A program made the translations under genes and the position numbers. Shown one piece after another: positions 12,839 to 47,386 of a stretch of DNA of 64,000 nucleotides (its first letter is position 1; each line of letters starts with the position of its first letter). The notes under the pieces were generated by a model. The model ran no database searches. It was not told the origin of the DNA and worked only from the letters and a program-made list of their open reading frames with translations. Source of the DNA: an uncultured Ignavibacteriales bacterium (GTDB lineage Bacteria > Bacteroidota > Ignavibacteria > Ignavibacteriales > Ignavibacteriaceae). The DNA lies in contig CAVUCE010000015.1 of NCBI GenBank assembly GCA_963739985.1, positions 6,990 through 70,989 of the forward strand. Reading direction: 5' to 3'.

Positions 12839-12863
12839 AGATATTAAATGATTTTTTTATTTT

Positions 12864-12891: not shown

Positions 12892-12911
12892 ATTTAAAAT
12901 ATAAAAACAAA

Positions 12912-13409: not shown

Positions 13410-13580
13410 ATTTTCTCCTTATTTTTTGAGGTCTTGTTAATATCGAAACTAAATGTAATTAAACAGTATTTATACTGCAAATAATAAATGATAATTTCGA
13501 ATTAGGTTTATATCAGGAATATTTTTACTAAATATTCTTATTTTTATGAATAATTTAATCTTAAATATAGCGGCAATAGT

Positions 13581-14471: not shown

Positions 14472-14631
14472 ATCTTTAAAAGTGCTTAAATTATATACAA
14501 TTTCTCGATTTTAGGGGCATATATCAACAAAATTTGCTAATTATCACTAATTTCCTTCCTTTTTATTCGCATCATAATTCCGTATATTTGCACTTTAAAA
14601 ATGAAACTATTTAACACTAACTACCAGGTAT

Positions 14632-22806: not shown

Positions 22807-24210
22807 ATGAAATTAAGAATACAATTCTTGAATACGGCACTTTTTATGCTTTTGGTAATTCTTCTACTCTCCTCAAGTACTTTTGCTCAAACACATATCT
22901 CAGTGCCAGCTGACTATTCTTCAATTCAAGATGCTATTAACAATGCTAGTTCCGGAGATACAATTTTTGTCTCTAACGGAATCTATTCTTCCGGGGGGAT
23001 TACAATTAAAGTTGACAAACCATTATTTATAGTAGGGGAGAGTGAAGATAGTACAAAAATTGATGTTAGTACAAACGGCGCATCTTGGGGAATTCAAATT
23101 GCATCATCAAATGTTATTTTTAGCAATTTTACAATTATTCCTACATCAGCATCAGGGGGCGGATATCCGATTCATGTTGCTGATGAGCCAGTTAGTGAAA
23201 TTACAAATATAAATCTAAACCATATTTCAATATCAGGCTCTTACAGAACCGGGGTCGATTTTCACGGGGTATCGGGTGGTAATGTCTCATACATTACTTC
23301 AAAAAACGCAACACATGGAAATGGCGTACAATTTTCGGGTTGTAAAAACATTAATGTTAGTAATATTGTAACAAGTGGAAATGCTTGGGGTGGAATTGCA
23401 ATTTATGTGTCCGGTCCGTCATTACTGAACAGAGGTTCTGATAATATAAATATAGACGGTAGTTCATGTAATATTTCAGAATCAATTAAAATTTATTCAC
23501 AAGAAGAACACGGTTTGCCGATAACAAATGTTAATATTACTGGTTTTGATTATGCAGTCAGGAACTCATCTACTTCTGAATTAGCCGGATATATCTGGTA
23601 TCAGGTAAATAAAATTGATGCCTTAACTTTTGCAGCGGCTTTGTCCGCACCGGAATCTTCTACAGTTATAATGGTTGGAAATGCTCATAATTACTATGTC
23701 GGCAACGGTATGAGTATTCAAACTGCAATTGATTCATCTTCAAATGGCGATACGGTGTATGTTGATGCAGGAAATTATGTCGAAAATTTAACTGCTGATA
23801 AAAACATAACCATTATTTCTTCTGATACTGAACACTCTATTCTCACAGGTTCCATTTCGATTGCATCTGACGGAGTAATGATTGACGGTTTAACAATAGA
23901 AAATCCTTCTGGTAAAAATGGAATTACATCACAAGATTATAGTGATCTAACAATTAAAAATAATATTATACAAAATATCGGCACATCGGATGCATCAAGC
24001 TCAGGTACAAATTACGGCATAGCTGTTATCAGTTCATCTGATTCTGTTGATAACATTACAATTAATAATAATATTATTAAAAATATTGCTGGCGGAAATC
24101 ATAATTCAGCGGATGCAATCGCGATTGGCTGGAGTAACGGAACAAAAAATATTTCACATCTTTTAATTACGGATAACAATATCTTCAACATAACAAGCAG
24201 TATTAATTGA
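22807..24210 (+). CDS. surface protein fragment 1: signal peptide plus right-handed parallel beta-helix repeats
   Basis: Signal peptide LLSSSTFAQ, then repeated N/G/I-rich roughly 22-aa turns (GNGVQFSGCKNINVSNIVTSGNAWGGIAIYV; ITIKNNIIQNIG). It ends at a TGA created by one extra T at about 24207-24208. Confidence 0.7.
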   Translation: MKLRIQFLNTALFMLLVILLLSSSTFAQTHISVPADYSSIQDAINNASSGDTIFVSNGIYSSGGITIKVDKPLFIVGESEDSTKIDVSTNGASWGIQIASSNVIFSNFTIIPTSASGGGYPIHVADEPVSEITNINLNHISISGSYRTGVDFHGVSGGNVSYITSKNATHGNGVQFSGCKNINVSNIVTSGNAWGGIAIYVSGPSLLNRGSDNINIDGSSCNISESIKIYSQEEHGLPITNVNITGFDYAVRNSSTSELAGYIWYQVNKIDALTFAAALSAPESSTVIMVGNAHNYYVGNGMSIQTAIDSSSNGDTVYVDAGNYVENLTADKNITIISSDTEHSILTGSISIASDGVMIDGLTIENPSGKNGITSQDYSDLTIKNNIIQNIGTSDASSSGTNYGIAVISSSDSVDNITINNNIIKNIAGGNHNSADAIAIGWSNGTKNISHLLITDNNIFNITSSIN

Positions 24211-24754
24211 TTTTTCAAGCGGTGGAAGAGGCGCTTACGGAATATTATTAAATCATACAACTAATCCGTCAGGTGGTAAAATTATTTCTCCTGTAATTAC
24301 TGGAAATTCTATTACTGATTTGGAAGGCCTTTGGGCACATGGAATTGGTTTAGAGGGAAACACTCCGAATGCTGATATAGAAAATAATACCATCAACAAT
24401 TTAACTGATCACAAAACTCCATCAGATGCAGTTGCAATCAATATTGAAGATAATGTGGATGCAGCTAGTTTATTCATCCAAACTAACTCATTTACAAGTG
24501 TAAATGTTGGGATTAGAAATGTTACCGAAAGTCACGTGGTCGCCCAACTGAATTGGTGGGGAAGTGTTGAACCGGGATTTGATACATTGGTTATAGGAGA
24601 TGTTGATTATGATCCTTGGATTGGAAAAGGAGAGCCAACTCCGGTAATTAGCATTCCGAGTAATAATTCAACAGTTTTTTCCAGTGTACCAACAATTTTT
24701 TGGTATTACCCTTTTCCGGATACAGGCGGTGTAAGCTATGACGTTTTAAATTAG
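24209..24754 (+). CDS. surface protein fragment 2 (continuation in the +1 frame)
   Basis: The frame from 24209 reads DFSSGGRGAYGILLNHTTNPSGGKIISPVITGNSITDLEGLWAHGIGLEGNTP..., which continues the beta-helix. It ends inside an Ig-like module (VPTIFWYYPF..VSYDVLN*). Confidence 0.6.
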   Translation, partial: DFSSGGRGAYGILLNHTTNPSGGKIISPVITGNSITDLEGLWAHGIGLEGNTPNADIENNTINNLTDHKTPSDAVAINIEDNVDAASLFIQTNSFTSVNVGIRNVTESHVVAQLNWWGSVEPGFDTLVIGDVDYDPWIGKGEPTPVISIPSNNSTVFSSVPTIFWYYPFPDTGGVSYDVLN

Positions 24755-24945
24755 AAAATCATCTATTTCTACTTAAGCTTGTTCCTATCATGTTTTTATT
24801 AAGATTTCTGATATAAAAGTAATCTCAGCTCAATTCTTTTGAAACATGAAAAAACAGCAGGGTAACTATTATTTTATGTAAGCATTTGATTGATATGCTT
24901 CATATTTCAAATGAAAAACGATTTAATTGATATAGTCATAGAATT

Positions 24946-25754
<809 letters not shown>

Positions 25755-25758
<4 letters not shown>

Positions 25759-26705
25759 TGCCGGACTTTCTGGAGTTTTCTTTTCCCTTAGCATCATGGT
25801 CTAATGGTGGTACTACTATGTATTCATTAACTCCGTCTTTCAGTTGGTATTTATCCGGACTTGCTTCGGGAAGTATCACTTACAATCTTGAGATTAAACC
25901 TATAGGGACTCCTTTTGACGGAACAACAGGAATACTCACAGGAATAACTTCTACATTTTATACTTTAACAAGTTCGCTTACCGCAGGTACAGCATATCAT
26001 TGGAGAGTTCAGTTAGTGAGTTCAACTTCCGGAACCTCAGCTTGGTCTGATGAAGATGTTAACGGCGGAGCCACATTTAGTACTTATGCAACTCCAAGTA
26101 TTTTAACCGTTCCACTAGCCGGAAGTCCAATAAATGGTGTAAGTATTTCATCCAAATCCGCAACTCTTAGCTGGTATTTGCCAACGGCTCCAAAAAAAGT
26201 GCAAAGTTATAGAATTGAAGTATCAAAAAATCCGAATATGACCAATCCGATACTTCAATTAGAGGATGTAACTGATTTGCATAAAGCAATTAGTTCACTT
26301 GACGCAGGGACATATTTCTGGAGAGTTCAAGCCAAAACGAGTGATGGTAAATACTCAAAATATTCTGCGGTTGCATCTTTTAAAATCAGTTCCGTTACCG
26401 CAGTTAATGAAGAGAGTTTGATACCTAAAGAATTTAAAGTATCTCAAAATTATCCTAATCCATTTAATCCAAGTACGGTTATTAAATATGGTTTACCAAA
26501 TTCAGCATTTGTTTCTATAAAGATTTACAATATGCTTGGACAAGAGGTTAAAACATTAATTAGTTCTGAAAAGAATGCCGGGACTTATAGAGTGCAATGG
26601 AATGGAGATGATAATTTTGGAAGAAAAGTATCCAGCGGTGCATATATTTATCGTGTGGTTGCGGGAAATAATATTAGTACGAAAAAAATGATCTTATTAA
26701 AATAA
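25755..26705 (+). CDS. surface protein fragment 4: Ig/FN3-like modules plus a T9SS C-terminal sorting domain
   Basis: Modules with TPSFSWYLSG / SATLSWYLP ... YHWRVQ / YFWRVQA. The C-terminus SQNYPNPFNPSTVIKYGLP...AGTYRVQWNG...GAYIYRVVAGNNISTKKMILLK is a typical Por secretion tail. Confidence 0.75.
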
Positions 26706-26733
26706 TCTACAAAATTTGTGAATAGTTAATATA

Positions 26734-26772
26734 AACCTCTGAGCTGATTTTAAAGCTTGGAGGTTTTTTTAT
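26734..26772 (+). terminator. rho-independent terminator after the surface-protein gene
   Basis: aaacctctgagct...agcttggaggtt forms an imperfect stem followed by tttttttattttt. Confidence 0.6.
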
Positions 26773-27193: not shown

Positions 27194-28657
27194 ATGCAAA
27201 ACGAAAAAAAACAATTAAATCAACCTATCATCTTATTAGCGCTTACAATAATATTTTTAATCGCCCTTTCATTTTTACCTTCGAACATGAAAATATTTGG
27301 TTATACAATAAAACCTGTTGATTTATTTATGGATATAAAACCGGATTCATTATTGAGCAGCAATTATAATATTCAACCAAATAATCATTCCATTCAAAAA
27401 TATTATGATGCAAGTTCACTTGATAAATCAAACGATTTAGGTGTAAACAAAGATGCATTATTAGCCAGCGTTAATTTTAATCTTCTGAGTAAAATTTTTA
27501 ATAACTCTTCCGCAGCAAAAAATAACAAATCAATTGATGCATCGACTTTAGAAAATTATATCGAGGAAAGAATTTCCGGTAATACCGATCAAATGAAGTA
27601 TTTTTATGATGCTGTTAGAAATGCGGGAAATAAAAAAATTAGAATTGCGCATTTTGGTGATTCTGAAATTGAAGGTGATCTTATAACCGCTGAGTTAAGA
27701 AAAAAATTGCAAAGCAAATATGGTGGCGAGGGAGTCGGATATTTGTCTATTACATCTCAAGATATAACATTTAGAACCACAACAAAACAAAGTTTTTCTG
27801 ATAACTGGAAAACTTATTCAGTATTAGATGGCGGCGGTGATAAGGTTTCTCCTGGAATAAGCGGTTATGTTGCTGTTCCACAAGGAGTGAGCTGGGTGAA
27901 ATATCAAGCAACCGGTTTTAACAATACTTCCAGATATTTTACAACCGTTAGAGTTTTTTACAGTAATTCTGATGGGTCATCAATCAAATATTCCTTTGAT
28001 GGTTCAAAAGAACAAACTGCATCTCTTTTACCCGGAAAATCTGTTCAAGAACTGATTTTGAAAGCTCCTGGTAAAGCAAATTCAATTAAAATTACCACAA
28101 CCAAAGCAAATCAAGCAAATTTTTATGGCGTTAGCCTTGAAGGCGGCGATGGAGTTTATGCTGACAATTTTCCATGGAGGGGAAATACAGGAGTTGGTTT
28201 TAGAGATATTGATAAGTCTGTTATGAAGGATTTTAATAAATATCTTAATTATAAATTATTGGTTTTAAGTTTTGGCGGAAATATGGTAGGTAATAATTCT
28301 ACCGATTTTTCCTGGTATGAAAATCAAATGGTTAAAATTATAAATAATCTAAAACAAGAATTTCCGCAGACAAGCATTTTGTTGGTTTCAGTTGGTGATA
28401 AAAGTATCAAACGGGGAAGTCGCTTTATTACTGATCCAACTATTTCCGCATTGTTAGATGTTCAGAAGAGTATTGTACAAAAAACCGGTATAGCTTTTTG
28501 GAATTTATTTAATTCGATGGGTGGCAAGAATTCGATGGGAACATGGGTGGATGCAAACCCACCATTAGCATTTAAAGATTACACACATTACACACTTCCT
28601 GGTGCTGATAAAATCGGTGACATGTTAAGTGAAGCTTTAATTAATGAAATTAGATAA
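27194..28657 (+). CDS. membrane-anchored SGNH/GDSL-fold protein (DltD / AlgX-AlgJ-like acyl-transfer component)
   Basis: N-terminal TM segment. SGNH block I IRIAHFGDSEIEGD. It is a paralog of 43862-45124 and lies first in an operon with the carrier protein and the MBOAT. Confidence 0.65.
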   Translation: MQNEKKQLNQPIILLALTIIFLIALSFLPSNMKIFGYTIKPVDLFMDIKPDSLLSSNYNIQPNNHSIQKYYDASSLDKSNDLGVNKDALLASVNFNLLSKIFNNSSAAKNNKSIDASTLENYIEERISGNTDQMKYFYDAVRNAGNKKIRIAHFGDSEIEGDLITAELRKKLQSKYGGEGVGYLSITSQDITFRTTTKQSFSDNWKTYSVLDGGGDKVSPGISGYVAVPQGVSWVKYQATGFNNTSRYFTTVRVFYSNSDGSSIKYSFDGSKEQTASLLPGKSVQELILKAPGKANSIKITTTKANQANFYGVSLEGGDGVYADNFPWRGNTGVGFRDIDKSVMKDFNKYLNYKLLVLSFGGNMVGNNSTDFSWYENQMVKIINNLKQEFPQTSILLVSVGDKSIKRGSRFITDPTISALLDVQKSIVQKTGIAFWNLFNSMGGKNSMGTWVDANPPLAFKDYTHYTLPGADKIGDMLSEALINEIR

Positions 28658-28684
28658 TTACTATAATTTAAGGAGACTTTCAGT

Positions 28685-28921
28685 ATGATTTCGGATAAAT
28701 TAAAATCGGTTATTCTAAAGGAATTGGAAATCGAAAATTTTGACTTCCAGGATGCTACTACTGCCGATCAAGTTCCAAACTGGGACTCATTAACCCACCT
28801 AAATGTAATTCTGGCGATTGAAAAAGAATATCAATTAAAATTTAAAGGTCTCGAAATTTTAAAGATTAAAAATATTGGGGAATTACAACAGTTAATTGAT
28901 AAAAAACTCTCTACTAACTAA
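28685..28921 (+). CDS. acyl/aminoacyl carrier protein (DltC-like)
   Basis: 78 aa with phosphopantetheine-attachment context VPNWDSLTHLNVILAIEKEY (DSL serine). Confidence 0.8.
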   Translation: MISDKLKSVILKELEIENFDFQDATTADQVPNWDSLTHLNVILAIEKEYQLKFKGLEILKIKNIGELQQLIDKKLSTN

Positions 28922-28941
28922 ACTGAAACAGGAATTCCCGA

Positions 28942-30441
28942 ATGTTTTACTGGATTGATACCCAAAGATTGCTGGATTTGTTTGTTTACCAAAAGCATGA
29001 TCCGGTGGTTTTTACTACTAGCTACTTCCTATTCTTTTTTTTCATTGTATTAGTAGTTTATAGATTATTTGCTTCTAAGAAAAATTTAAGAATTTATTCA
29101 CTTATAATATTTTCGTTATTCTTTTACTATAAAGCTACCGGTTATTATTTCTTTATTTTGTTTTTTACAACCTTATTAAACTTTTATATCGGAAATTGGA
29201 TTGGTGGTACAGAGTCCCAATCAAAACGAAAATGGTTGCTCATAATTTCCATTGTCGTAAACATAGCAGTATTATTTTACTTTAAGTATACCAATTTCTT
29301 TATAGGTATATTAAATGATATTAGTGTCGGACAGTTAAATCCGTTAGATATTTTTGTCCCGGTAGGCATATCTTTTTATACATTCAAAGCTATGTCCTAT
29401 GTATTGGATATCTATTTTGAAACTATGGAGCCTGTAAAAAGTTTAAGAGATTTCACATTATTCGTATCTTTTTTCCCAAACATACTTGCCGGACCAATTG
29501 ATAGAGCTTCAGAATTTCTTCCACAGATAGAACAAGAGTACAAGGTTACCAAACGTGATGTAAGTATGGCTGTCTTTTTAATTATTGTTGGTTTATTCAA
29601 AAAAACTGTGATCGCTGATTATATTGGATTAAACTTTGTTGACAGAATTTTTGACAGCCCTTTGCGATACACCGGAGTTGAAAATTTGATGGCGGCTTAT
29701 GGTTACGCTCTACAACTTTGGTGTGATTTTTCCGGTTATACAGATATGGCTTTAGGCGTTGGACTTTTGCTTGGATTTAAATTAAGAGAGAACTTTAATT
29801 ATCCCTATAAAGCAACCAGTATTGCCGATTTTTGGCGGCGCTGGCATATGTCTCTTTCTACATGGTTATTAGACTATTTGTTCAAACCTCTGCAAATGAA
29901 ATTTAGAAATCTAAGAAATTTTGGAAACGCTTTAGCTCTTTTTATAACATTCACTGTTATTGGTATTTGGCATGGTGCTAATTGGACTTTCATTCTTTTC
30001 GGTGTTATTCATGGTACATATTTAGCCACGTCAATTTTCACCAAAAAATTAAGGAAGAAATTTTGTGATAAAACAGGTTTAACAAATACCAAATTTTTAA
30101 AAGTATTTCAAATATTTTTCACTTTCCAACTTGTAGTATTAGCAGATATTTTCTTTAGAGCAGCAAGTGTTGGAACTGCTCTAGATATGTTTAAGCAGAT
30201 TTTTACATTCTTCCATTCTGAAGTTTTCATACAGTTTGTTAAGGGATATACCGAGATTTTTGGGTTAGTAATTTTAGGATATGTATTACACTATTTGCCG
30301 GAGTCGGTGGCTAAAAAAACACAAGAGTTGCTATTCAAAACACCGGTTGTAGTTTTAGCGGTTCTTTTAACCCTAATGATTTGGTTAACGATACAATTCA
30401 AATTTGCTGACTTACAACCATTTCTATATTTTCAGTTTTAA
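28942..30441 (+). CDS. MBOAT-family membrane O-acyltransferase (DltB/AlgI-like)
   Basis: 499 aa, polytopic, with FWRRWHMSLSTWLLDYLF and the conserved His region IGIWHGANW. Confidence 0.88.
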   Translation: MFYWIDTQRLLDLFVYQKHDPVVFTTSYFLFFFFIVLVVYRLFASKKNLRIYSLIIFSLFFYYKATGYYFFILFFTTLLNFYIGNWIGGTESQSKRKWLLIISIVVNIAVLFYFKYTNFFIGILNDISVGQLNPLDIFVPVGISFYTFKAMSYVLDIYFETMEPVKSLRDFTLFVSFFPNILAGPIDRASEFLPQIEQEYKVTKRDVSMAVFLIIVGLFKKTVIADYIGLNFVDRIFDSPLRYTGVENLMAAYGYALQLWCDFSGYTDMALGVGLLLGFKLRENFNYPYKATSIADFWRRWHMSLSTWLLDYLFKPLQMKFRNLRNFGNALALFITFTVIGIWHGANWTFILFGVIHGTYLATSIFTKKLRKKFCDKTGLTNTKFLKVFQIFFTFQLVVLADIFFRAASVGTALDMFKQIFTFFHSEVFIQFVKGYTEIFGLVILGYVLHYLPESVAKKTQELLFKTPVVVLAVLLTLMIWLTIQFKFADLQPFLYFQF

Positions 30442-30445
30442 TAAA

Positions 30446-30469
30446 AAATGCCGGTATAAGCCGGCATTT
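30446..30469. terminator. bidirectional terminator hairpin between convergent operons
   Basis: aaatgccgg / tataag / ccggcattt is a perfect 9-bp stem. An A-run lies upstream and aatttttaa downstream. Confidence 0.65.
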
Positions 30470-30496
30470 AATTTTTAATTTAAATCTTCACTTTAG

Positions 30497-31444
30497 TTAA
30501 TCTAAAATATCGCCTTCGCGCACTCCTAACGTTTTTGCGATTTCATTTATTTCAATACCTTCCATTTCTTCAGTCATAACATCTTCAATATTTAAGATTG
30601 CATCCGCACAAGCAATTTGAAATGTTTCATCATCAATTTTCATGATCTTACCGACTGTAGAATGATCATCATTTGGACCAACATAAGAGACCATGTTAAC
30701 AACTACTTCACCATTCCCGGTTTTCAGTTTAGGGTAAACAAAAGTATTTTCAAATGGAATAAAATTTAATCCTCTTACCATTTGATCAATTTTTTCATAA
30801 TTCCATGAAAAAGAGAGAATACCATTATTTTCCGGATAATCTTTTAATGAGTAGTAAGAAGACATTCCGGATTGAGGTTGTCTTTTATAATTATCATGTA
30901 ATATATTTTCGAATGTTTCTTTAAATAAAGCTAAGCCCTCCATTATTGAAAGACTCATTAACCTTCCGGCCGTTGTATCTTCATCAATAGGAAATTTTCT
31001 TTGAGCTATTACATCGCCTGTATCAATTCCTAAGTCAATAAAGTGCCATGTAACACCATGCTCTTTTTCACCATTAATAATTACCCACGACGGGATATTG
31101 ACGCCGCCGTACAGAGGCAGCGGAGCATTATGAAAATTTATAGTGCCGGTTTTAGGAATTGCAATAAGATCATCTTTAATAATTCTATAATTATTTATGC
31201 TGAACATTATATCGGGTTTATGCCTTTTTACAAACTCAACTGCTTCCGGTGAATTTATCTTTGTTATACCTTTTACGTTAATTCCCGCGTCTTCAAATGT
31301 CTTCATTATCGAATCAGAAGGATTATCTTTCTTCGGATCATATATAAAAAAAGCGATTTTTGCGTCTTCATATTTCTGCATATACTTGATGCAATCGACG
31401 GCCATTTTACCGTTGCCTATTACACCAAAAATTTTTTCTGCCAT
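30497..31444 (-). CDS. formyltransferase-like protein (Fmt/ArnA-N-like fold)
   Basis: 315 aa. INFHNAPLPLYGG matches the NxH...(S)LLPxxRG catalytic loop and IDTGDVI matches the catalytic Asp region. There is a C-terminal extra domain, as in Fmt. It starts 10 nt after the adenylating-enzyme gene. Confidence 0.7.
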   Translation of the reverse strand: MAEKIFGVIGNGKMAVDCIKYMQKYEDAKIAFFIYDPKKDNPSDSIMKTFEDAGINVKGITKINSPEAVEFVKRHKPDIMFSINNYRIIKDDLIAIPKTGTINFHNAPLPLYGGVNIPSWVIINGEKEHGVTWHFIDLGIDTGDVIAQRKFPIDEDTTAGRLMSLSIMEGLALFKETFENILHDNYKRQPQSGMSSYYSLKDYPENNGILSFSWNYEKIDQMVRGLNFIPFENTFVYPKLKTGNGEVVVNMVSYVGPNDDHSTVGKIMKIDDETFQIACADAILNIEDVMTEEMEGIEINEIAKTLGVREGDILD

Positions 31445-31453
31445 TTTTTGCCT

Positions 31454-32956
31454 TTAGTTATTTATTTGATTTGCCAAAGCTTTTCGATCAACTTTTCCGT
31501 TAACATTAAGTGGAAAAGTTGAAACAGAAAGAATCTTAGACGGAATCATATAATTAGGAAGTTTTGTCTTCAAGTAGCTCTCAATGTCATTCGATTTTCC
31601 ATCGAAATTTTCAACAAAAAGATAAATCTGATTATTACCGATTTTATTTTTATGAGCAACTGCAGCTACATTACTCAGTTGAGTGAACTCTCGAGTGTGA
31701 TGTTCGATTTCACTTAATTCCACTCTAAATCCTTGAATTTTAACTTGGTGATCAACTCTTCCACAATACATAAAATCATTATCCTCATCCAGGTAAGCAA
31801 GGTCTCCGGTTCTATATAATGTTGTCTCTTTCCCGTTCACTTCTTTTACAAAGAATGCTTGTTTATTCTTTTCAGGATTTTTCCAATAACCGGGAGTAAG
31901 CTGTGCACCGTAAAGACAAAGTTCGCCTCTATCACCTTTCGGTAAAATATCGCCGTTTTCGTTTACTACAACGGCTCCCATATTTTCCATCGGTTTCCCT
32001 ATTGCAACTATGCTGTTGAAATTTTTATTCTTCGCTTTGTCTCTGCTCAAATCATATGTTAAGCAAAATATGGTTGCTTCCGTAGGACCGTAAACATTTT
32101 GAACAAGAGCATTCGGTACGCATTCCATCCATTCATGAACTATATCTTCGTATAACGCTTCACCGCAGAACATAGAATAGCGCATTCTAGGCAACTTAAT
32201 CTCTTCAAAATAGGGGCGTAAATAAGCCATAATAGAAGGAACCATAAGCGCTATAGTCAATTCTTGTTCTTCTAATAAACTATAAACATAAGTATATTTT
32301 ATCCCTCCGGGAGGAACTGTATAAACGCAAGCGCCTTTGCATAAAGGAGCAATGTAGGACATTAATGATAAATCAAATGTCATGTCAAACATTTGCAAGC
32401 ATCTATCATTTTCATTTATTTCATAACCAAGTTTATAGAAAGCATCAATAAAAGAAATTAAATTTTTTCTAGTAAGTGGAACTCCTTTAGGAACACCGGT
32501 ACTGCCTGATGTAAAAAGTATATAAGCAATTTCATTTTCATCTATTTTCGGATCGTTCAGATTTATTTCAGCTTTTTGTAATGATGTTGTATCAATAAAT
32601 CTTACTTGATTTTTATCAACAGCTTCTTTAATCTCTTTTGAATCTTTGCTGTCTAAAATCATATTGATTCCGGATTGCTCAATAACAGCTAAATTTCTAT
32701 CAATCGGATTTTCAGGATTAATTGGTACGAATCCAAGTCCAGCGTATAGTATTCCAAATACAGTAGAATATGTTTCAATATCATCATTTGTAATAAAGCC
32801 TATTAATTTTTGTTCTTCTTCATTATTCTTTTCTAAATAATCTCTAATATTGGAAACTATTTGAGCTAATTCTGTATAACTATAATATTTTCCATCAATA
32901 AAAAAAGCATTTTTCTCTGGGAATTTCTGGACTGAATCCTGAATTTGATCGAGCAT
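31454..32956 (-). CDS. stand-alone amino-acid-adenylating enzyme (DltA / NRPS A-domain-like)
   Basis: Adenylation core motifs are present: ILFTSGSTGVPKGV, FDLSL (with Asp), YGPTE, YRTGDLA, GRVDHQVKIQGFRVELSEIE and NGKVDRKAL. Confidence 0.85.
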   Translation of the reverse strand: MLDQIQDSVQKFPEKNAFFIDGKYYSYTELAQIVSNIRDYLEKNNEEEQKLIGFITNDDIETYSTVFGILYAGLGFVPINPENPIDRNLAVIEQSGINMILDSKDSKEIKEAVDKNQVRFIDTTSLQKAEINLNDPKIDENEIAYILFTSGSTGVPKGVPLTRKNLISFIDAFYKLGYEINENDRCLQMFDMTFDLSLMSYIAPLCKGACVYTVPPGGIKYTYVYSLLEEQELTIALMVPSIMAYLRPYFEEIKLPRMRYSMFCGEALYEDIVHEWMECVPNALVQNVYGPTEATIFCLTYDLSRDKAKNKNFNSIVAIGKPMENMGAVVVNENGDILPKGDRGELCLYGAQLTPGYWKNPEKNKQAFFVKEVNGKETTLYRTGDLAYLDEDNDFMYCGRVDHQVKIQGFRVELSEIEHHTREFTQLSNVAAVAHKNKIGNNQIYLFVENFDGKSNDIESYLKTKLPNYMIPSKILSVSTFPLNVNGKVDRKALANQINN

Positions 32957-33186: not shown

Positions 33187-34365
33187 ATGAAGAAAGTTTT
33201 TTTCTTAGTTCCTTTATTCTTTTTCGGTACAATTTTCCCACAAAGAGAAATAAGTATGAATCAAATACAAGATATAGTGAATAATTATAAAATTGAGTAT
33301 GCGCCGGATAAACGAACTGCGCTTTTTAATATTGAGGTTGAAGGCAACGAAGGTAACTGGATATTAAATGGAGAAACTAATCTAAAAAATGCAGAAGAGA
33401 AATTAATTGAAGAGTTAAAAGCTAAAAATATTAAGTTTCAGAATAATATTGATGTTTTACCTTCTAAAAGTCTAGGTGATAAAGTTTATGCAATCATTGA
33501 TGTTTCTTCCTCGAGTATGAGGACACATCCCAAACATGCTGCTGAAATGGCTACACAGGCTTTATTGGGTTGTTATGTTGAGGTTTTTAAAAAATCAGAA
33601 AGCTGGTATTTAGTTCAAACTCCGGACAAATATATTTCCTGGGTAGAGGGTTCCAATATTACCAGGATGAATGAATCCGAGGCTGCTGCATGGCAGAACG
33701 CTGATAAGGTAATTTATACTAATGATTACGGATTTTCATTTGATGCACCGGAAGAAGATGCAAATCACGTATCAGATTTGGTAGTCGGTAACTTGCTTAA
33801 AAAATTAGGTACCGAAAATAATTTTGTCAAAGTTGGCTATCCTGATGGAAGAATAGCTTATATTCCAGAAACCTCATGCCAGGATTATGGTAAATGGTTG
33901 AAAGATCGTAAATTAAATTCAGATAATATTATAAAAGCGGCAAAACAATTTATGGGTATTCCATATCTATGGGGTGGTACTTCAGCAAAAGCTTTAGATT
34001 GCAGCGGATTTACTAGAACGGTTTTTTTCTTAAATGGTGTTTATTTACCTCGTGATGCTTCACAACAAGTTCATGTAGGGAATCCTGTTGATACAAAAAA
34101 TGGTTTTGATAAATTGGAGCCCGGAGATTTGCTATTCTTTGGTACAAAGGCAACCGATTCTACTAAAGAAAAAGTTACTCATGTGGGAATATACATTGGA
34201 AACGACGAATTCATACATGAATCAGGCAAAGTTCAAATTAATAGCTTTAATAAAAATGCAGAGAATTTTAGTTCTTACAGATTGCATCAATTTCTTAGAG
34301 CGAAGAGAGTTTTGAACTCAGTAGGAAAAAATGGTGTTGTATCATTAGAAAATGTCAAATACTAA
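33187..34365 (+). CDS. NlpC/P60 cysteine peptidase with N-terminal SH3-like domains (YkfC-like)
   Basis: Signal peptide, catalytic LDCSGFTRTVF and THVGIYIGNDEFIHES. Confidence 0.8.
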   Translation: MKKVFFLVPLFFFGTIFPQREISMNQIQDIVNNYKIEYAPDKRTALFNIEVEGNEGNWILNGETNLKNAEEKLIEELKAKNIKFQNNIDVLPSKSLGDKVYAIIDVSSSSMRTHPKHAAEMATQALLGCYVEVFKKSESWYLVQTPDKYISWVEGSNITRMNESEAAAWQNADKVIYTNDYGFSFDAPEEDANHVSDLVVGNLLKKLGTENNFVKVGYPDGRIAYIPETSCQDYGKWLKDRKLNSDNIIKAAKQFMGIPYLWGGTSAKALDCSGFTRTVFFLNGVYLPRDASQQVHVGNPVDTKNGFDKLEPGDLLFFGTKATDSTKEKVTHVGIYIGNDEFIHESGKVQINSFNKNAENFSSYRLHQFLRAKRVLNSVGKNGVVSLENVKY

Positions 34366-34493
34366 AAATATATATTAGGGGTTTATAAAAGGTACGTTGT
34401 TAAAATGATATAATTTTTGGGATGCGGCTTTATAAAAATGTAGCATCCCGATTCAAATCTTTTTTAGAATAAATTAACTGGATCAATCTTAAA

Positions 34494-35519
34494 ATGAGCG
34501 GAAAACTAAAATTATCTTATAAACCATACACGTTAGAGTTGAAACACGTTTTTACTGTAGCAACTAATTCAAGATCAACAACACCAATTGTTTTAACTGA
34601 AATAGAATATGACGGAGTTGTTGGATATGGAGAGGCGTCGATGCCTCCTTATCTGGGAGAATCACACGAGACAGTGTTAAAGTTTTTATCCAAAGTTGAT
34701 CTATCCAAATACGATAATGTTTTCGAACTGGATAATATATTATCGGATATTGATAAAATTGAACCCGGAAATAATGCTGCAAAAGCATCATTGGACATTG
34801 CTTTACATGATCTCATCGGTAAGTTGATGGGGCAGTCGTGGTATAACATCTGGGGAATTGATAAAGCAAAAACACCTTATACTTCATTTACAATTGGAAT
34901 TGACACAGCTGAAGTTGTAAAGAAAAAAGTTAAAGAAGCGGATGAATTCAAAGTTTTAAAAGTTAAACTCGGTCGAGAAAACGATAAAGAAATGATAGAA
35001 ACCATCCGTGCAGCAACTGACCGTCCTTTGTCAGTAGATGCTAACCAAGGCTGGAAGGATAAGCATTTAGCTTTGGATATGATACATTGGTTGAATGAGA
35101 AGAATGTTTTATTTATAGAACAACCGATGCCCAAAGAACAAGTAGATGATATGGCGTGGTTAACTGAAAATAGTCCACTGCCTACAATTGCAGATGAGGC
35201 AGTTAGAAGATTAGCCGATGTGCCTTCTGCAAAAGGAGTTTACACCGGAATTAACATAAAATTGATGAAATGTACCGGAATGCGGGAAGCTCATAAAATG
35301 ATAATTTTAGCTCGCGGATTAGGAATGAAGGTTATGTTAGGATGTATGACGGAAACCTCGTGTGCAATTTCAGCAGCTGCACAATTATCACCCTGGGTTG
35401 ATTGGGCTGATCTTGACGGCGCTTTATTGATAAGTAACGATGTTTATGAAGGAACAAAAATTGTAAATGGAAAAGTGGAGTTGAGCGATTTACCTGGTAT
35501 TGGAATTAAGAAATTGTGA
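34494..35519 (+). CDS. dipeptide epimerase (L-Ala-D/L-Glu epimerase-like, enolase superfamily)
   Basis: KVLKVKLG, SVDANQGW, LFIEQP and IADEA metal/acid-base positions. It is paired with the NlpC/P60 gene, as in the B. subtilis ykfB/ykfC pair. Confidence 0.8.
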   Translation: MSGKLKLSYKPYTLELKHVFTVATNSRSTTPIVLTEIEYDGVVGYGEASMPPYLGESHETVLKFLSKVDLSKYDNVFELDNILSDIDKIEPGNNAAKASLDIALHDLIGKLMGQSWYNIWGIDKAKTPYTSFTIGIDTAEVVKKKVKEADEFKVLKVKLGRENDKEMIETIRAATDRPLSVDANQGWKDKHLALDMIHWLNEKNVLFIEQPMPKEQVDDMAWLTENSPLPTIADEAVRRLADVPSAKGVYTGINIKLMKCTGMREAHKMIILARGLGMKVMLGCMTETSCAISAAAQLSPWVDWADLDGALLISNDVYEGTKIVNGKVELSDLPGIGIKKL

Positions 35520-39585: not shown

Positions 39586-40842
39586 ATGCGACAAAAGATA
39601 CAAATCAGCCGTTCTGGAATAATGCTAGTAGATAAAGCATGGGGAGGATTTTACCGTGGAGGCACCTATTTACTAATCGGTCCTCGAAAATCCGGTAGAA
39701 CTTTACTTAGCCTTCAGTACGCGATGGAAAGCGCACGCCAAAAGGAAGTCTGCTTATACTTTACGAGTATGCGTCCAAAGGACTTGATGATCCAAGCAGC
39801 CTCAATAGACTTTGATCTTCAGCATTATATGAACCAAAACTTGATCATAGTAGTAAGAGTGGCGCCACCATCAGACTTATACGAGGTAGGCAACCCGGAT
39901 GAGTTTTTGGTAGAGTATCTTAACGACATAGTCACAGTAGTAGACCAGTACCAGCCAAATAAAATAGTATTTGACGAGTTAACGCCATTTATCGGTTTCA
40001 GTAACGTAGATCTTTTAGAGGAAGTCTACTCCAGAACAGCCGAAACGATAGAGGATATAGGTATAACAAGTTTATTTACGGTAGGAGATCCGGCCACACC
40101 GGCAGCCAGTCATATAGTAGACGCATTGGCCAATCACTCCACCGGCATCATATACCTAAAGAAGTCGGAAGAAGACGAGTTGACTGAAATGGGCAGAACG
40201 CAAGGCGGGAAGATGATCATAACGCCAAACATCGGCCATACAGAAGGAAAGTTCAGCTCAAATTATTATATAGAGCCGTACCGCGGCATCACTGTAGATT
40301 ACGGAAATGAAGAAAGTAATAGTTACGGAGAATCTTCCGGTAGCGTCACACAGTCCCGCAAGTATAAATCGCTAGCAGAGATAGATTTGCCGAACGAGCA
40401 AGTATCTTTCTCTAACATATATACCATGAACGATTTCAATTTAATCTTAAATAACCAGATAGCCTTGTATAAGAGTACCGGTCAGATATTTACAATAATC
40501 TCATTCCGATTGGATTTTACGGCAGAGAAGTTGGGATTATTGACTATCAGCCAGTTACAGAACGCAGTTCGTTTATCCACGGATAAGAAGGATAAGATCT
40601 GCATAATCAACGATAAGGTTATAGTTTTAGTAACGAAGGATGACCCCAAGGGTATCAACTTCTTTATAGGTAAGATAAAGAGCAATCTTCCGAACAGCGA
40701 ACCGGGTTACTTGAGCCGTGTTCTTCAGTATATTTCTGTTTACGCAGTAAAGGTAGATGATCGAGTTCAGAGTGCAGAAGACATATTGGGTCAGTTATTA
40801 TCGGAAGATATCCCGGAAAAAAACAAATTAGGATTTCACTAG
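39586..40842 (+). CDS. KaiC/RecA-like (degenerate P-loop GPRKSGRT) fused to a degenerate GGDEF-like C-terminal domain, copy 1
   Basis: The N-terminal half resembles 38769-39536. The C-terminal roughly 130 aa (MNDFNLILNNQIALYKSTGQIFTIISFRLDF...RLSTDKKDKICIINDKVIVLV...FIGKIK) follows the GGDEF-domain secondary-structure and hydrophobic pattern, with INDK where GGDEF would sit. Confidence 0.6.
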   Translation: MRQKIQISRSGIMLVDKAWGGFYRGGTYLLIGPRKSGRTLLSLQYAMESARQKEVCLYFTSMRPKDLMIQAASIDFDLQHYMNQNLIIVVRVAPPSDLYEVGNPDEFLVEYLNDIVTVVDQYQPNKIVFDELTPFIGFSNVDLLEEVYSRTAETIEDIGITSLFTVGDPATPAASHIVDALANHSTGIIYLKKSEEDELTEMGRTQGGKMIITPNIGHTEGKFSSNYYIEPYRGITVDYGNEESNSYGESSGSVTQSRKYKSLAEIDLPNEQVSFSNIYTMNDFNLILNNQIALYKSTGQIFTIISFRLDFTAEKLGLLTISQLQNAVRLSTDKKDKICIINDKVIVLVTKDDPKGINFFIGKIKSNLPNSEPGYLSRVLQYISVYAVKVDDRVQSAEDILGQLLSEDIPEKNKLGFH

Positions 40843-41651
40843 AAGAAAGCTGCAATGAAACAAGTAATACTATCATCACTGCTACTTATACTAATTCTAG
40901 GGGGAATAGGACAGCGTGTTTACGGCCAGATAAATCCGGAAGCGATGAGAAATGAAGCCGAGCAAGAGATGAAGTTCGGCAGATACGGGGAGTCAATAGA
41001 TTTGTTGAACCGCTATATTTCAGCCCGTCCACAGAAGGCAGATGGTTATAATTTACGGGGAATCTGTTATGAGAAGCGAGAGCAGTTTGAGTTGTCTGTA
41101 TATGATTATCGATCGGCTCGAAAACTTGATCCAAGTAACAAAGAAATCCGGAAGAATTTAGAGAGAGCGACAAGTACTTGGTATAAGTTGCTATATAATA
41201 ATATAGAGGGATATAAGAGGGAAATAGCGATAAACCCAAATAAGGCAGAGAATTATTTAGAGATAGGTAAAGCATATAAGAATTTAGGCAAGTGGGAAGT
41301 AGCCGAGCAATGGTATGATCAGTATTTGGCGAGGGAACATGCATCACCGGATGAGATAATAAGGTATACGGAGATACTGGCGAAGAATAATCATATAGCC
41401 AAGGGTTGGCCGATACTGAAGAAGTATACAGATGAATATCCGGAAGACCAGCGGTTGTGGTCACGTTACGGATATTTTTCAATGTGGTTGGGAAAGAATA
41501 AGATAGCGATAAAGGCATTTGAGAATGCCTTGGCATTGAAGCCATATTTTAAGGAAGCACAAGACGGATTAGATCAAGCCAAGGGTAAGGGATATATTTA
41601 TACTGTTAACGATACTGCTTCAAGATATAATTATGGGATGCCTGTTCCGGC
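39586..41651 (+). repeat. direct repeat copy 1 (2,066 bp)
   Basis: Offset 5,735 nt to copy 2. The encoded 418-aa proteins are identical except R9/H9 (g39611 vs a45346). The intergenic 12 nt and the first 265 codons of the next gene are identical. Antisense ORF translations are also identical, which implies near-100% nucleotide identity. Confidence 0.9.
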
Positions 41652-43758
41652 AAAATACAAACAGTATGCTATTGATAAATATTATTCAATATTAAAAAAG
41701 CGCCCTGATGATAATGAAATTAGATTCAAATTAGTAAAGGAATTAGTAAAAGCGGAAAGATATTCAGAAGCCAATGATGAATTACAAACTTTAATTCAAG
41801 ATACAAGTAAAACTGAATATCAAGACTATTACACTAATTTTAAATCTCTCAGGGATAGTGTCTTTGAGAAGAGAATAACCGACTATGCAGCCAAGTTTAA
41901 AGCAGATCCACATAATAAAGAAGTAGCAATAAAACTTGCTGATGCTTATGGCCATACATATGATTTTGACAGTTCAATGGAAGTATTGTCAGAATATCTT
42001 AAAGGAATTCCTGAAAATAAAGAATTAGATGTAAGATTTTTATATGCTAAATACGCATCATGGAATTACGAATGGAACGAAGCTAGGGTGACTCTTGATA
42101 ACTTATTAAAATATGATCCTAATAATTTAGATTATCAATTACTCAGTGCCCAAATAACTGCCTGGAATGTAACTGAATCTAAACAAGAAGAAATTGATAA
42201 TGCCAGTAGATATATAAAAAATGTTCTTGCAAAAGATCCTAATAATATGCTTGCTTTGATTGCTGAAGTATATCTAAAATCCGGACAGGGTGACATGGTC
42301 TCAGCCAAAAAAGTTGTGGATCAGTTAAAAACTTTATATCCTGAAAAGAAAGAAATAACAGCTATTCAAAATTATTATAATACGCGACTTCTTGTTGCTA
42401 AAGAAAAAGAAATACTTAATATGCGAGGAAAAGCCGGTAAACTATATCTGGCCGGCAATTGTAATGATGCTTTGAAAATTTATGACGATATTTTCGAAAG
42501 GGAAAAAAATCCAAGCAGAGACCTGATTCTTGAATACGCTTCGGTTAGTTCATGTGCAAAAGCGTATACTCAAGCAATAGATTTATACAATCAGGCATTA
42601 AATTTAAGCTATGATAGTGAAACTGCTAGTTTACTTGCTCTAAATTATTTATGGTCCGGTGATACAACTAAATGCTTAATTATGTTACAAGATTTGCAAG
42701 AAAAAAATCCATCAGATTTTCGTACTAATTATTATTTAGGTGATATTTACGAACGAACTAAACAACCTGAAAAAGCTATAGCAATATATGATAGACTCTT
42801 GTCTGATTCTTTAAGAAGCAATTTAGATTCAACACAAATTGCAACATTAGAAACTAGATTAGGTTATCTTAACACCGGATTCGGAGGAGGCTTTGGAAGG
42901 TTTCCTGCATACGTTGCACTTTCACCGATGGCATCTTATTATGCAGATAACCAAGATTTTAGATTATCAGATATTGGTGGGCGGTTAGAGGTAGGAATTA
43001 CCAGTTTCTTAACAATAGGTGCTTCATATTCCCGAACCGGATTAACTAATAAATATTATACAAGATATTTAAGCTCTAACAAGTGGCTTGCATATTTAAG
43101 ATTGGTTAAAGGATTAACAGCTTCAGTCGGCTTCGGAACAATTCATACCGTTGGCTATTCTCCAAAAAACATCGCTGATGCTTCATTGAAGTACCAGGGT
43201 GTTGAAGATAGATTGACTACTTCATTATCTTATGAAACAACAGACGGAAGACTAGCTTTATATTCACCTTATATATTAGATAAAGATTACAGAGTAAACA
43301 TTGTTAGATTTAATATTGATTATTTATTCAGATCAGGTTTTAAGGTATTAGCTAATTATCAACACCTTTCAATAAGCGATAATAATAGCGGAGATAATCT
43401 CCAATTCAGATTAGGTAAATCGCTATACAAAGATTTGTTTATCGGATATGAATATTTGTATTCCAATTTTTCGTTCATGTCTTCATACTATTACTCCCCG
43501 GCAAGTTTTAGTGCACATAGCATTTGGTTTGATTGGAGGCCGTTAAACGAAGACAATATAAAATTAGATTTTGGCGGAAAGTTCGGTTATGTTCCGCAGA
43601 GCGATTACTTGCTTAGAGAAGGATTTGGGCAAATAACCTATAAACCACTTCCTATATTAAATATTGTAGCGAGAATTTCAGCAGCAAGTTCTTATCGATA
43701 TGATGGAAGTTATAACTATTTATCTGGTTTAATTTCGGCATATATCAGCTTGTTTTAA
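40855..43758 (+). CDS. outer-membrane polysaccharide export protein A: TPR region plus C-terminal beta-barrel (PgaA/BcsC/PelB-like)
   Basis: Signal peptide, about 600 aa of TPR-like repeats (ADGYNLRGICYEKREQFELSVYDYRSARKLDPSN...). The C-terminal roughly 300 aa shows an alternating hydrophobic beta-strand pattern ending ...SAYISLF, an OMP-type terminal Phe. Confidence 0.65.
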   Translation: MKQVILSSLLLILILGGIGQRVYGQINPEAMRNEAEQEMKFGRYGESIDLLNRYISARPQKADGYNLRGICYEKREQFELSVYDYRSARKLDPSNKEIRKNLERATSTWYKLLYNNIEGYKREIAINPNKAENYLEIGKAYKNLGKWEVAEQWYDQYLAREHASPDEIIRYTEILAKNNHIAKGWPILKKYTDEYPEDQRLWSRYGYFSMWLGKNKIAIKAFENALALKPYFKEAQDGLDQAKGKGYIYTVNDTASRYNYGMPVPAKYKQYAIDKYYSILKKRPDDNEIRFKLVKELVKAERYSEANDELQTLIQDTSKTEYQDYYTNFKSLRDSVFEKRITDYAAKFKADPHNKEVAIKLADAYGHTYDFDSSMEVLSEYLKGIPENKELDVRFLYAKYASWNYEWNEARVTLDNLLKYDPNNLDYQLLSAQITAWNVTESKQEEIDNASRYIKNVLAKDPNNMLALIAEVYLKSGQGDMVSAKKVVDQLKTLYPEKKEITAIQNYYNTRLLVAKEKEILNMRGKAGKLYLAGNCNDALKIYDDIFEREKNPSRDLILEYASVSSCAKAYTQAIDLYNQALNLSYDSETASLLALNYLWSGDTTKCLIMLQDLQEKNPSDFRTNYYLGDIYERTKQPEKAIAIYDRLLSDSLRSNLDSTQIATLETRLGYLNTGFGGGFGRFPAYVALSPMASYYADNQDFRLSDIGGRLEVGITSFLTIGASYSRTGLTNKYYTRYLSSNKWLAYLRLVKGLTASVGFGTIHTVGYSPKNIADASLKYQGVEDRLTTSLSYETTDGRLALYSPYILDKDYRVNIVRFNIDYLFRSGFKVLANYQHLSISDNNSGDNLQFRLGKSLYKDLFIGYEYLYSNFSFMSSYYYSPASFSAHSIWFDWRPLNEDNIKLDFGGKFGYVPQSDYLLREGFGQITYKPLPILNIVARISAASSYRYDGSYNYLSGLISAYISLF

Positions 43759-46577: not shown

Positions 46578-47386
46578 AAGAAAGCTGCAATGAAACAAGT
46601 AATACTATCATCACTGCTACTTATACTAATTCTAGGGGGAATAGGACAGCGTGTTTACGGCCAGATAAATCCGGAAGCGATGAGAAATGAAGCCGAGCAA
46701 GAGATGAAGTTCGGCAGATACGGGGAGTCAATAGATTTGTTGAACCGCTATATTTCAGCCCGTCCACAGAAGGCAGATGGTTATAATTTACGGGGAATCT
46801 GTTATGAGAAGCGAGAGCAGTTTGAGTTGTCTGTATATGATTATCGATCGGCTCGAAAACTTGATCCAAGTAACAAAGAAATCCGGAAGAATTTAGAGAG
46901 AGCGACAAGTACTTGGTATAAGTTGCTATATAATAATATAGAGGGATATAAGAGGGAAATAGCGATAAACCCAAATAAGGCAGAGAATTATTTAGAGATA
47001 GGTAAAGCATATAAGAATTTAGGCAAGTGGGAAGTAGCCGAGCAATGGTATGATCAGTATTTGGCGAGGGAACATGCATCACCGGATGAGATAATAAGGT
47101 ATACGGAGATACTGGCGAAGAATAATCATATAGCCAAGGGTTGGCCGATACTGAAGAAGTATACAGATGAATATCCGGAAGACCAGCGGTTGTGGTCACG
47201 TTACGGATATTTTTCAATGTGGTTGGGAAAGAATAAGATAGCGATAAAGGCATTTGAGAATGCCTTGGCATTGAAGCCATATTTTAAGGAAGCACAAGAC
47301 GGATTAGATCAAGCCAAGGGTAAGGGATATATTTATACTGTTAACGATACTGCTTCAAGATATAATTATGGGATGCCTGTTCCGGC
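45321..47386 (+). repeat. direct repeat copy 2 (2,066 bp)
   Basis: See copy 1. Identity begins at the ATG and ends after ...cctgttccggc. The two sequences then diverge (caaaataca vs tcctgctta) but both stay in frame. Confidence 0.9.

Follow-up and report, generated by a model that had tools for sequence, protein, structure and literature searches.

Two types of envelope acylation by a membrane-bound O-acyltransferase (MBOAT) together with a partner protein of the SGNH fold are distinguished to date (PMC12148441). In the Dlt pathway, a carrier protein is combined with a short MBOAT, and the acyl-shuttle motif FxYxxF is found on a separate microprotein, DltX; in all other MBOAT/SGNH systems, such as those of the PatA/AlgI type, the motif is fused to the MBOAT itself and there is no carrier protein because acyl-CoA is used (Anderson et al., PMC12148441). 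Here, we describe a locus which mixes both types, in that a carrier protein is encoded together with an MBOAT harboring a fused shuttle. The locus spans positions 27194–32956 of a 64,000-nucleotide stretch of DNA from an uncultured Ignavibacteriales bacterium (assembly GCA_963739985.1, contig CAVUCE010000015.1, positions 6,990 to 70,989 of the forward strand), hereafter referred to as the window. An earlier note made from the letters of the window had read in it a carrier-protein-dependent acylation system of Dlt-like logic in a diderm, and this was borne out by our analysis. Going by the sequences, we propose an O-acylation system in which an N-formyl-aminoacyl-S-carrier donor would feed an MBOAT/SGNH relay leading to an envelope glycan, a reading which we would accept about as readily as doubt.

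Dlt-like loci are already known from Gram-negative bacteria, for instance dra in Bordetella and dltB in Dickeya, and a Dlt-like system in a diderm is thus not new in itself. By their descriptions, the Bordetella and Dickeya loci resemble the present one in the DltA/DltC-like loading that serves a Gram-negative envelope. Aminoacyl loading of the same kind is used by AlmEFG in the addition of glycine to the lipid A of Vibrio cholerae, except that AlmG is an LpxL-type acyltransferase of the cytoplasmic face and not part of an MBOAT/SGNH relay.

Results

Organization of the locus

Inspection of the open reading frames (ORFs) of the window revealed five genes in positions 27194–32956, arranged as two convergent transcription units. 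The forward unit consists, in this order, of SGNH1 (27194–28657; 487 amino acids), a membrane-anchored, Ape1-like protein with an inserted beta-sandwich; a carrier protein of the WDSLxH type (28685–28921; 78 amino acids); and an MBOAT with a DltB-like core and a C-terminal helical extension (28942–30441; 499 amino acids), with intergenic gaps of 27 and 20 nt. On the reverse strand, a stand-alone amino-acid adenylation enzyme (hereafter the ligase; 31454–32956; 500 amino acids), related to DltA and to the second (Gly) module of the linear gramicidin synthetase LgrA, is followed after 9 nt by a formyltransferase-family gene whose product has both N- and C-terminal domains (30497–31444; 315 amino acids). 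The four genes named in the earlier note were all found where it had placed them, in two convergent units; missing from its inventory were the formyltransferase, the FLYFQF motif fused to the MBOAT and the relation of SGNH1 to Ape1.

In common with Dlt (DltA, DltC, DltB, DltX, DltD), the locus encodes a free-standing ligase for amino acids and a small carrier alongside an MBOAT and an SGNH-fold protein anchored in the membrane. It differs from Dlt in the WDSLxH type of its carrier, in an SGNH partner that is Ape1-like and not of the DltD family, in the addition of a formyltransferase, and in its host, a diderm of the Ignavibacteria bearing a type IX secretion system (T9SS), in which teichoic acids are not expected. 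Strict Dlt orthology was rejected, every curated cutoff being missed; the Dlt-like logic read at first is retained. The Pfam families that had been anticipated were confirmed for AMP-binding and MBOAT, while PP-binding gave no match and GDSL_2 remained under its cutoff.

MBOAT and carrier protein

The MBOAT scored 97 bits against the Pfam MBOAT family (cutoff 27) and 200 bits against the DltB model TIGR04091 (cutoff 375), and its public annotations are generic (MBOAT family, DltB superfamily or AlgI). Its residues 25–406 align with DltB from the Protein Data Bank (PDB) with an E-value of 8e-31 and 24% identity, and Foldseek searches with its AlphaFold2 model (pLDDT 80.6, pTM 0.80) returned DltB at the top (target TM-score 0.72–0.73), followed by HHAT and PORCN. 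His302, His344 and Tyr496 are invariant among 34 homologues. Past the DltB-aligned core, the model places additional helices at residues 410–498, and the protein terminates in FLYFQF (codons 30421–30438, forward strand), which contains Tyr496 and corresponds to the FxYxxF acyl-shuttle motif. No gene for a separate DltX-like microprotein was found at the window module, and none would be needed because the motif is fused to the MBOAT. The initial description of this protein as DltB/AlgI-like was incomplete: to a DltB-like core is added a fused shuttle typical of the acetyl-CoA-dependent PatA and AlgI in the place of a separate DltX.

Whereas DltB comprises about 400 residues, lacks the shuttle and relies on a separate DltX, the 499-residue MBOAT of the window with its fused FxYxxF resembles those of PatA/PatB (peptidoglycan), AlgI/J/F/X (alginate) and WssFGHI (cellulose), which combine an MBOAT of about 480–500 residues ending in FxYxxF with an extracytoplasmic SGNH partner in a diderm. 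These three systems, however, are described as devoid of a carrier and as using acyl-CoA (PMC12148441), whereas the carrier gene of the window lies 20 nt upstream of the MBOAT gene with a dedicated ligase nearby; their partners, moreover, are PatB (DUF459), AlgX/AlgJ or DHHW-family proteins, whereas that of the window is Ape1-like.

The 78-residue carrier contains the expected DSL serine as Ser35 of WDSLTH (codon 28787–28789), the predicted phosphopantetheine site, and Trp33, Ser35 and His38 are invariant among 88 homologues. Searches against Pfam yielded no match, the PP-binding and DltC families included, and matches to the acyl carrier protein (ACP) models of NCBIfam were weak. The best PDB match was the putative ACP 2lml, which displays the same WDSLxH motif (E=1.4e-12); no DltC structure was among the PDB matches. 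The WDSLxH type is said to have been described for a specialised ACP of Geobacter.

Related loci in Ignavibacteria

One genome per species was scanned, yielding 136 relatives of SGNH1, from which 80 loci were kept, almost all of them from Ignavibacteria and including those of cultured Melioribacter, Stygiobacter and Rosettibacter; flanks around the core loci were limited to 10 kb. The arrangement is not a product of chance: an SGNH gene and an MBOAT gene accompany each other in almost every one of the 80 species-level loci with a long enough contig. The C-terminal motif, as [FVY]xYxx[FY], was present in 78 of 80 complete MBOAT ORFs across all loci retrieved, including those with a carrier gene directly upstream. 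In most of the 80 loci, the carrier gene stands between the SGNH and MBOAT genes, directly 5′ of the latter.

Three types of loci could be told apart. In the first (about 40 loci), the order SGNH-carrier-MBOAT is often accompanied by convergent genes for amino-acid adenylation, either one or a pair (at least 13 loci), and by GNAT genes, and sometimes by ketoacyl synthase III (KASIII), ketoreductase or second carrier genes; among the Ignavibacteriaceae, at least 13 loci have the convergent ligase at this conserved position. In the second (31 loci), found in Melioribacteraceae and relatives, the three cultured genera included, a single operon holds the SGNH gene, a fatty-acyl-AMP-ligase-like gene, the carrier and the MBOAT (e.g. 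L049, 9857–14856, with a 575-residue ligase-like product; L053; L066; L074). The third (9 loci) consists of SGNH and MBOAT genes with neither ligase nor carrier. The gene content of the second type implies a putative fatty-acyl donor for the same transfer core. In Ignavibacteria, then, one constant SGNH-MBOAT core goes with a donor module that differs between loci (an amino-acid ligase, a fatty-acyl-AMP ligase or none). That ligase and carrier are gained or lost together beside a constant core is our main argument that the carrier feeds the MBOAT.

Two loci (L028, 4742–11574, and L031, 6001–13225) each display two complete SGNH-carrier-MBOAT triads in tandem in the same genome, and an extra small GDSL protein is encoded upstream in some others (L005, L034, L060).

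Adenylation enzyme

The ligase scored 214 bits against Pfam AMP-binding (cutoff 29.9), 317.2 bits against the amino-acid adenylation model TIGR01733 (cutoff 317.4), and 306 and 295 bits against the DltA models NF003417 (cutoff 476) and TIGR01734 (cutoff 560). In agreement with the alpha-amino-acid type assigned to it previously, its core motifs are complete, including FDLS with the alpha-amino-binding Asp (Asp235) and the C-terminal Lys (Lys517). DltA reference sequences were taken from the output of the PDB search, and the ten pocket positions were read off by alignment. The resulting code, DLMSMCVIFK, is identical at 7 of 10 positions to that of Bacillus subtilis DltA (DLMSMCTVAK; Bacillus cereus DltA, DLMSLCTVAK), the first six being equal and including the Cys at position 301, which we take to govern the selection of D- over L-alanine or the reverse in DltA. 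Its last three variable positions are bulkier than those of DltA and resemble those of the LgrA Gly module (DIASLCIIY). Among solved structures, module 2 of LgrA was the best match (233 bits), followed by DltA (200 bits) and AlmE (4oxi; 193 bits). The code DLMS[LM]CVIFK is kept in ligase orthologues down to 41% identity, and a second, paralogous class with the code DF..LCAVFK is present in other Ignavibacteria loci.

These features point to a small alpha-amino acid, D-Ala, L-Ala or Gly, as the likely substrate. A fatty or aryl acid, which would have spoken against the initial proposal, was rejected in view of Asp235, Lys517 and the DltA-like pocket. Since the enzyme is of the alpha-amino-acid type, transfer of an aminoacyl group is more likely than that of acetate, as the earlier note had it.

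A single ORF of 1005 residues in L019 (13977–16994), and likewise in L040, joins a pair of adenylation domains whose pocket codes differ and has no condensation domain; it is flanked by GNAT genes, a 559-residue protein of unknown type, a small carrier-like ORF, and fragments of short-chain dehydrogenase/reductase and KASIII genes. A conserved GNAT of about 220–240 residues with the motif EAEKSGT is encoded beside the amino-acid ligase in many loci (e.g. L034, 5608–6288; L001, 18562–19947; L086, 3536–4258), and could serve to N-acetylate the amino acid held by the carrier, a parallel to the formylation proposed below.

SGNH1 and its paralogue

SGNH1 scored 25.3 bits against Pfam GDSL_2, under the cutoff of 32.9, and had no Pfam match to PF04914 (DltD) or to the AlgX/AlgJ, PatB (DUF459) or DHHW families. 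Its GDS, GxN and DxxH blocks carry Ser157, Asn363, Asp462 and His465, all invariant among 24 homologues. The AlphaFold2 model (pLDDT 76) consists of an N-terminal hydrophobic helix (residues 10–26), a disordered linker (39–121) and a folded domain (122–487), whose block I and block II are separated by an inserted beta-sandwich. In the PDB, the family profile had no match other than Ape1 from Neisseria meningitidis (4k3u, E=1.8e-24) and its counterpart from Campylobacter jejuni, the match to 4k3u falling in two stretches that flank the insert. Foldseek likewise retrieved Ape1 (4k3u, target TM-score 0.79–0.80; 8gkd and 8gld, 0.74; E about 1e-23), followed by family 2 carbohydrate esterases with TM-scores of about 0.3; DltD, AlgX, AlgJ and PatB were absent from the top 50, where Ape1 and carbohydrate esterases were found. 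The label DltD/AlgX-like was rejected on the grounds of the missing PF04914 and AlgX matches and of structural neighbours that are Ape1, while the membrane anchor that had been noted with it stands.

Ape1 is a member of GDSL_2 with an inserted carbohydrate-binding module, and the known partners of MBOATs belong to other SGNH families (PMC9487903). With Ape1, the O-acetylpeptidoglycan esterase of Neisseria and Campylobacter, SGNH1 shares the SGNH fold, a carbohydrate-binding-type beta-sandwich after block I, the Ser/His/Asp residues and a gene placed beside an MBOAT. It is set apart by a membrane anchor at its N terminus, by a juxtamembrane motif that is conserved and by the disordered linker of 80 residues. 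SGNH1 may thus be regarded as a functional candidate for the role of DltD or PatB, of Ape1 lineage; its anchor and operon position would argue for transfer over hydrolysis, and a transferase role is proposed because it is the only SGNH protein of the operon.

The paralogue reported near polysaccharide genes is real: SGNH2 (43862–45124, forward strand) is 47% identical to SGNH1 over 388 residues. It possesses a signal-peptide-like N-terminus, without the membrane anchor, juxtamembrane motif or linker, and lies inside a polysaccharide locus (38.7–58.6 kb of the window) of KaiC, TPR, family 2 glycosyltransferase (GT2) and deacetylase genes. SGNH2 is possibly an esterase or a second transferase, and its membership in the system is uncertain. 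On either side of its gene, a KaiC-like ATPase gene and a gene for a TPR protein of about 960 residues form a tandem duplication (39586–43758 and 45321–49463), downstream of which a PgaC-like GT2, a 169-residue protein of unknown type and a polysaccharide deacetylase compose a locus resembling that of poly-N-acetylglucosamine (PNAG), with an unusual KaiC/TPR component.

Formyltransferase

The product of the fifth gene matched Formyl_trans_N (PF00551) with 73.6 bits (cutoff 26.1) and Formyl_trans_C (PF02911) with 35 bits (cutoff 21.1). Its Asn-His-Asp triad (Asn103, His105, Asp141) is invariant among 36 homologues and aligns with the catalytic motifs of WbkC. Scores against the NCBIfam equivalogs for Fmt, ArnA, PurN and sugar formyltransferase all fell far under the cutoffs (ArnA, 114 versus 777; Fmt, 95 versus 201), and of 5.8 billion proteins, 64 were recovered at E<1e-10, which marks the family as a small one. 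No nucleotide-amino-sugar genes were found near the window module.

In a metagenome scan, an adenylation gene lay within 3 kb of the formyltransferase gene in 37 of 56 assessable loci, and directly upstream on the same strand in 22. Two loci (L086 and L087) combine a ligase 72% identical to that of the window with a formyltransferase, an MBOAT with its partner and a carrier; in three others (L088, L092 and L097), the ligase, the formyltransferase, a carrier (GWDSLSH), an MBOAT ending in FIYFQF and an anchored protein with a weak GDSL match are encoded in a single operon, adjoined by a phosphoglycosyl transferase gene. A metagenome-assembled genome of the Gammaproteobacteria holds the carrier, formyltransferase and ligase genes in a Wzz/Poly_export locus without an MBOAT. 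In several phyla, members of this formyltransferase family are thus neighbours of adenylation and carrier genes, and frequently of an MBOAT gene as well, and the conserved linkage suggests that the transferred group is N-formylated. An N-formyl-L-alanyl group has been reported on the O2 O-antigen of Vibrio anguillarum (PMC10059132); such groups therefore exist on Gram-negative glycans.

In the planctomycete Stieleria maiorica (L169, CP036264, locus coordinates 9001–15466), a glycosyltransferase locus holds a Dlt-like set of the split kind, made up of a formyltransferase, a DUF1574-like SGNH protein, a 43-residue DltX-like microprotein ending in VFDYQGF, a 392-residue MBOAT, a PEP-CTERM-type ligase, a carrier and a pyridoxal phosphate-dependent decarboxylase.

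Genomic surroundings

The left boundary of the forward unit is set by a terminator-like hairpin on the forward strand (26733–26766; a 13-bp stem followed by a T-run), which ends the upstream T9SS-cargo gene, and a bidirectional terminator-like hairpin lies between the convergent stop codons (30446–30469; both strands; a stem of 9–10 bp with 5 GC pairs, and T-runs). T9SS sorting domains were confirmed on proteins encoded near the module, in line with the T9SS-bearing organism that had been called from the letters. A search for glycine and tetrahydrofolate (THF) riboswitches 5′ of both units found none and returned only sub-threshold terminator-like matches; a promoter scan was uninformative (31 sites seen versus 34.7 expected). 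A string of T9SS-cargo ORFs (22807–26705) is broken by about 226 consecutive T residues (24948–25173), for which an artefact of assembly or scaffolding, or else an unstable homopolymer, is the probable explanation.

Next to the module (33187–35519) are the genes of an NlpC/P60 peptidase containing SH3 domains and of an L-Ala-D/L-Glu epimerase-like member of the mandelate racemase family. That numerous loci of the Ignavibacteriaceae keep the pair in this place may be a hint of a connection with the turnover of peptidoglycan peptides. The names attached to homologues place the host in the class Ignavibacteria. The remainder of the window is ordinary chromosomal context, with genes for respiratory complexes, for instance.

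Discussion

The N-formyl-aminoacyl relay which we propose would proceed in four steps. Judging from its sequence, the cytoplasmic ligase would activate D-Ala, Ala or Gly and load it as a thioester onto the phosphopantetheine of the carrier. The formyltransferase, using N10-formyl-THF, would then add a formyl group to the free alpha-amine of the amino acid on the carrier, a step suggested by gene linkage and by where the individual steps take place. By analogy with PatA and with DltB/DltX, the MBOAT would next take the acyl group from the carrier at the cytoplasmic face of the membrane and pass it to its own Tyr496, within FLYFQF, on the outer face, where the membrane-tethered SGNH1 would accept it on Ser157 and transfer it in ester linkage to a hydroxyl of an envelope glycan. 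The secreted SGNH2 may act on the PNAG-like exopolysaccharide of the neighbouring genes, either by trimming the modification there or by extending it.

Three considerations underlie the place given to formylation. The ligase keeps the Asp that binds a free amine, and would therefore act on the unformylated amino acid; the steps past the MBOAT are extracytoplasmic; and N10-formyl-THF is cytoplasmic, so that the formyltransferase, if in the pathway, would act only on the carrier-bound (or adenylated) amino acid. Because formylation would occur on the carrier, the transferred unit would be an N-formyl-aminoacyl group, uncharged, unlike the D-alanyl esters of teichoic acids. The formylation-adenylation-carrier module of LgrA offers a precedent, in that its amino acid is formylated while thioester-bound to the carrier. 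In contrast to LgrA, the window functions reside on separate proteins, the formyltransferase is nearer to sugar N-formyltransferases and ArnA, and the product would be passed to an MBOAT rather than to a condensation domain.

Several observations weigh against this relay. No fewer than ten loci whose flanks are complete lack a ligase gene within 10 kb of the carrier gene. The window proteins all score under the Dlt equivalog cutoffs, and the pocket code of the ligase fits D-Ala, L-Ala and Gly alike, without separating them. The closest relatives of SGNH1 are esterases and not transferases. Nucleotide-sugar N-formyltransferases, acting on GDP-perosamine and TDP-aminoquinovose (84 bits), and ArnA (70 bits) are the best PDB matches of the formyltransferase, and the LgrA formylation domain, which acts on a carrier-bound amino acid, was not among the matches at E<1e-5. 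Among the Ignavibacteria core loci, finally, the formyltransferase is present only in the window and in its closest relative, L006, where the gene has two frameshifts, possibly sequencing errors.

The points relating to the formyltransferase could be accounted for by a plain Dlt-like aminoacylation in which the amino acid is transferred with its amine free, the formyltransferase being a nucleotide-sugar N-formyltransferase of another glycan pathway, brought next to the ligase through shared polysaccharide loci. In keeping with such an origin, its best solved relatives are sugar enzymes, many loci of its homologues are polysaccharide gene clusters, and most Ignavibacteria versions of the module lack it. 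However, the window has no amino-sugar biosynthesis genes nearby, the gene forms a two-gene unit with the ligase at a distance of 9 nt, the same tight order of adenylation and formyltransferase genes recurs in 22 unrelated metagenome loci, often with a carrier gene next, and the family is small and distinct. We consider transfer of the free amino acid unlikely, if worth keeping in mind.

A different assignment of SGNH1 would make the locus a peptidoglycan O-acylation cluster derived from patA-patB-ape1, in which SGNH1 is an esterase that removes acyl groups and transfer falls to the MBOAT or to some partner whose gene lies elsewhere. SGNH1 does fit Ape1 far better than any other solved structure, and Ape1 genes adjoin an MBOAT in known clusters (PMC12148441, PMC9487903), which we count in favor of this assignment, as we do the small GDSL protein encoded upstream in L005, L034 and L060, which could be the transferase, and the syntenic genes for the recycling of peptidoglycan peptides (NlpC/P60 and L-Ala-D/L-Glu epimerase-like). 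Yet SGNH1 is the sole extracytoplasmic enzyme of the operon in the window and in most loci, and known MBOAT relays need an SGNH protein to accept the acyl group from the Tyr; as in PatB and DltD, moreover, SGNH1 is anchored in the membrane, its juxtamembrane motif being conserved, and the secreted SGNH2 is better suited to an esterase role. An esterase SGNH1 in such a cluster therefore strikes us as decidedly unlikely.

That the adenylation-formyltransferase unit is unrelated to the MBOAT operon, its product being a cytoplasmic one, for instance an N-formyl amino acid that would go into a lipid or a small metabolite, while another enzyme loads the carrier with another acyl group, appears very improbable, for although the terminator predictions make the two units separate transcripts, several loci have carrier and MBOAT genes with no ligase in view and an MBOAT is encoded in only 7 of 26 assessable formyltransferase loci, the only carrier gene near the ligase is that of the MBOAT operon, the convergent ligase keeps its position in the Ignavibacteriaceae loci and all five genes form one operon in other lineages.

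With respect to the acceptor of the proposed N-formyl-aminoacyl relay, peptidoglycan, the PNAG-like exopolysaccharide and other polymers are candidates, peptidoglycan being as good a candidate as the exopolysaccharide. Peptidoglycan is favored by the Ape1 ancestry of SGNH1 and by the conserved NlpC/P60 and epimerase-like neighbours; the exopolysaccharide is favored by the position of SGNH2 inside the locus of KaiC-like, TPR, PgaC-like GT2 and polysaccharide deacetylase genes. Both associations may reflect lineage synteny. The Melioribacteraceae loci show neither, and KaiC-like or GH9 markers are found near the core in some Ignavibacteriaceae loci, within the 10-kb flanks, irrespective of the presence of the ligase, an independence that suggests synteny over functional coupling.

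In the literature searched, we found no paper on a formyltransferase with an MBOAT and an adenylation enzyme, or on an MBOAT with an ACP and a fatty-acyl-AMP ligase; nor did we find there a description of a carrier combined with a fused-shuttle MBOAT, of an Ape1-type partner, of a formyltransferase cassette spread across phyla, or of donor modules interchangeable on one core. Tentatively, and with more doubt than confidence, we suggest that the locus represents an undescribed class of envelope modification, in which a carrier-fed MBOAT with a fused Tyr shuttle and an Ape1-derived transferase would be combined with plug-in donors. In the host of the window, the products would be N-formyl-(D-)alanyl or N-formyl-glycyl esters on peptidoglycan or on a PNAG-like exopolysaccharide, and for Melioribacteraceae one would expect O-lipidation of the same acceptor, by this same core with a fatty-acyl-AMP ligase feeding it.

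The system should be testable with purified proteins. Related versions of it are carried by cultured Melioribacter, Stygiobacter and Rosettibacter, and Stieleria maiorica has a split Dlt-like set with the same formyltransferase family. The recurrent adenylation-formyltransferase-carrier cassette is a candidate genetic basis for the N-formyl-amino-acid decorations known chemically on some Gram-negative glycans. Given that the donor module is swapped on a constant core in the relatives of the window locus, the two types of envelope acylation whose traits it brings together would be the ends of a modular continuum.

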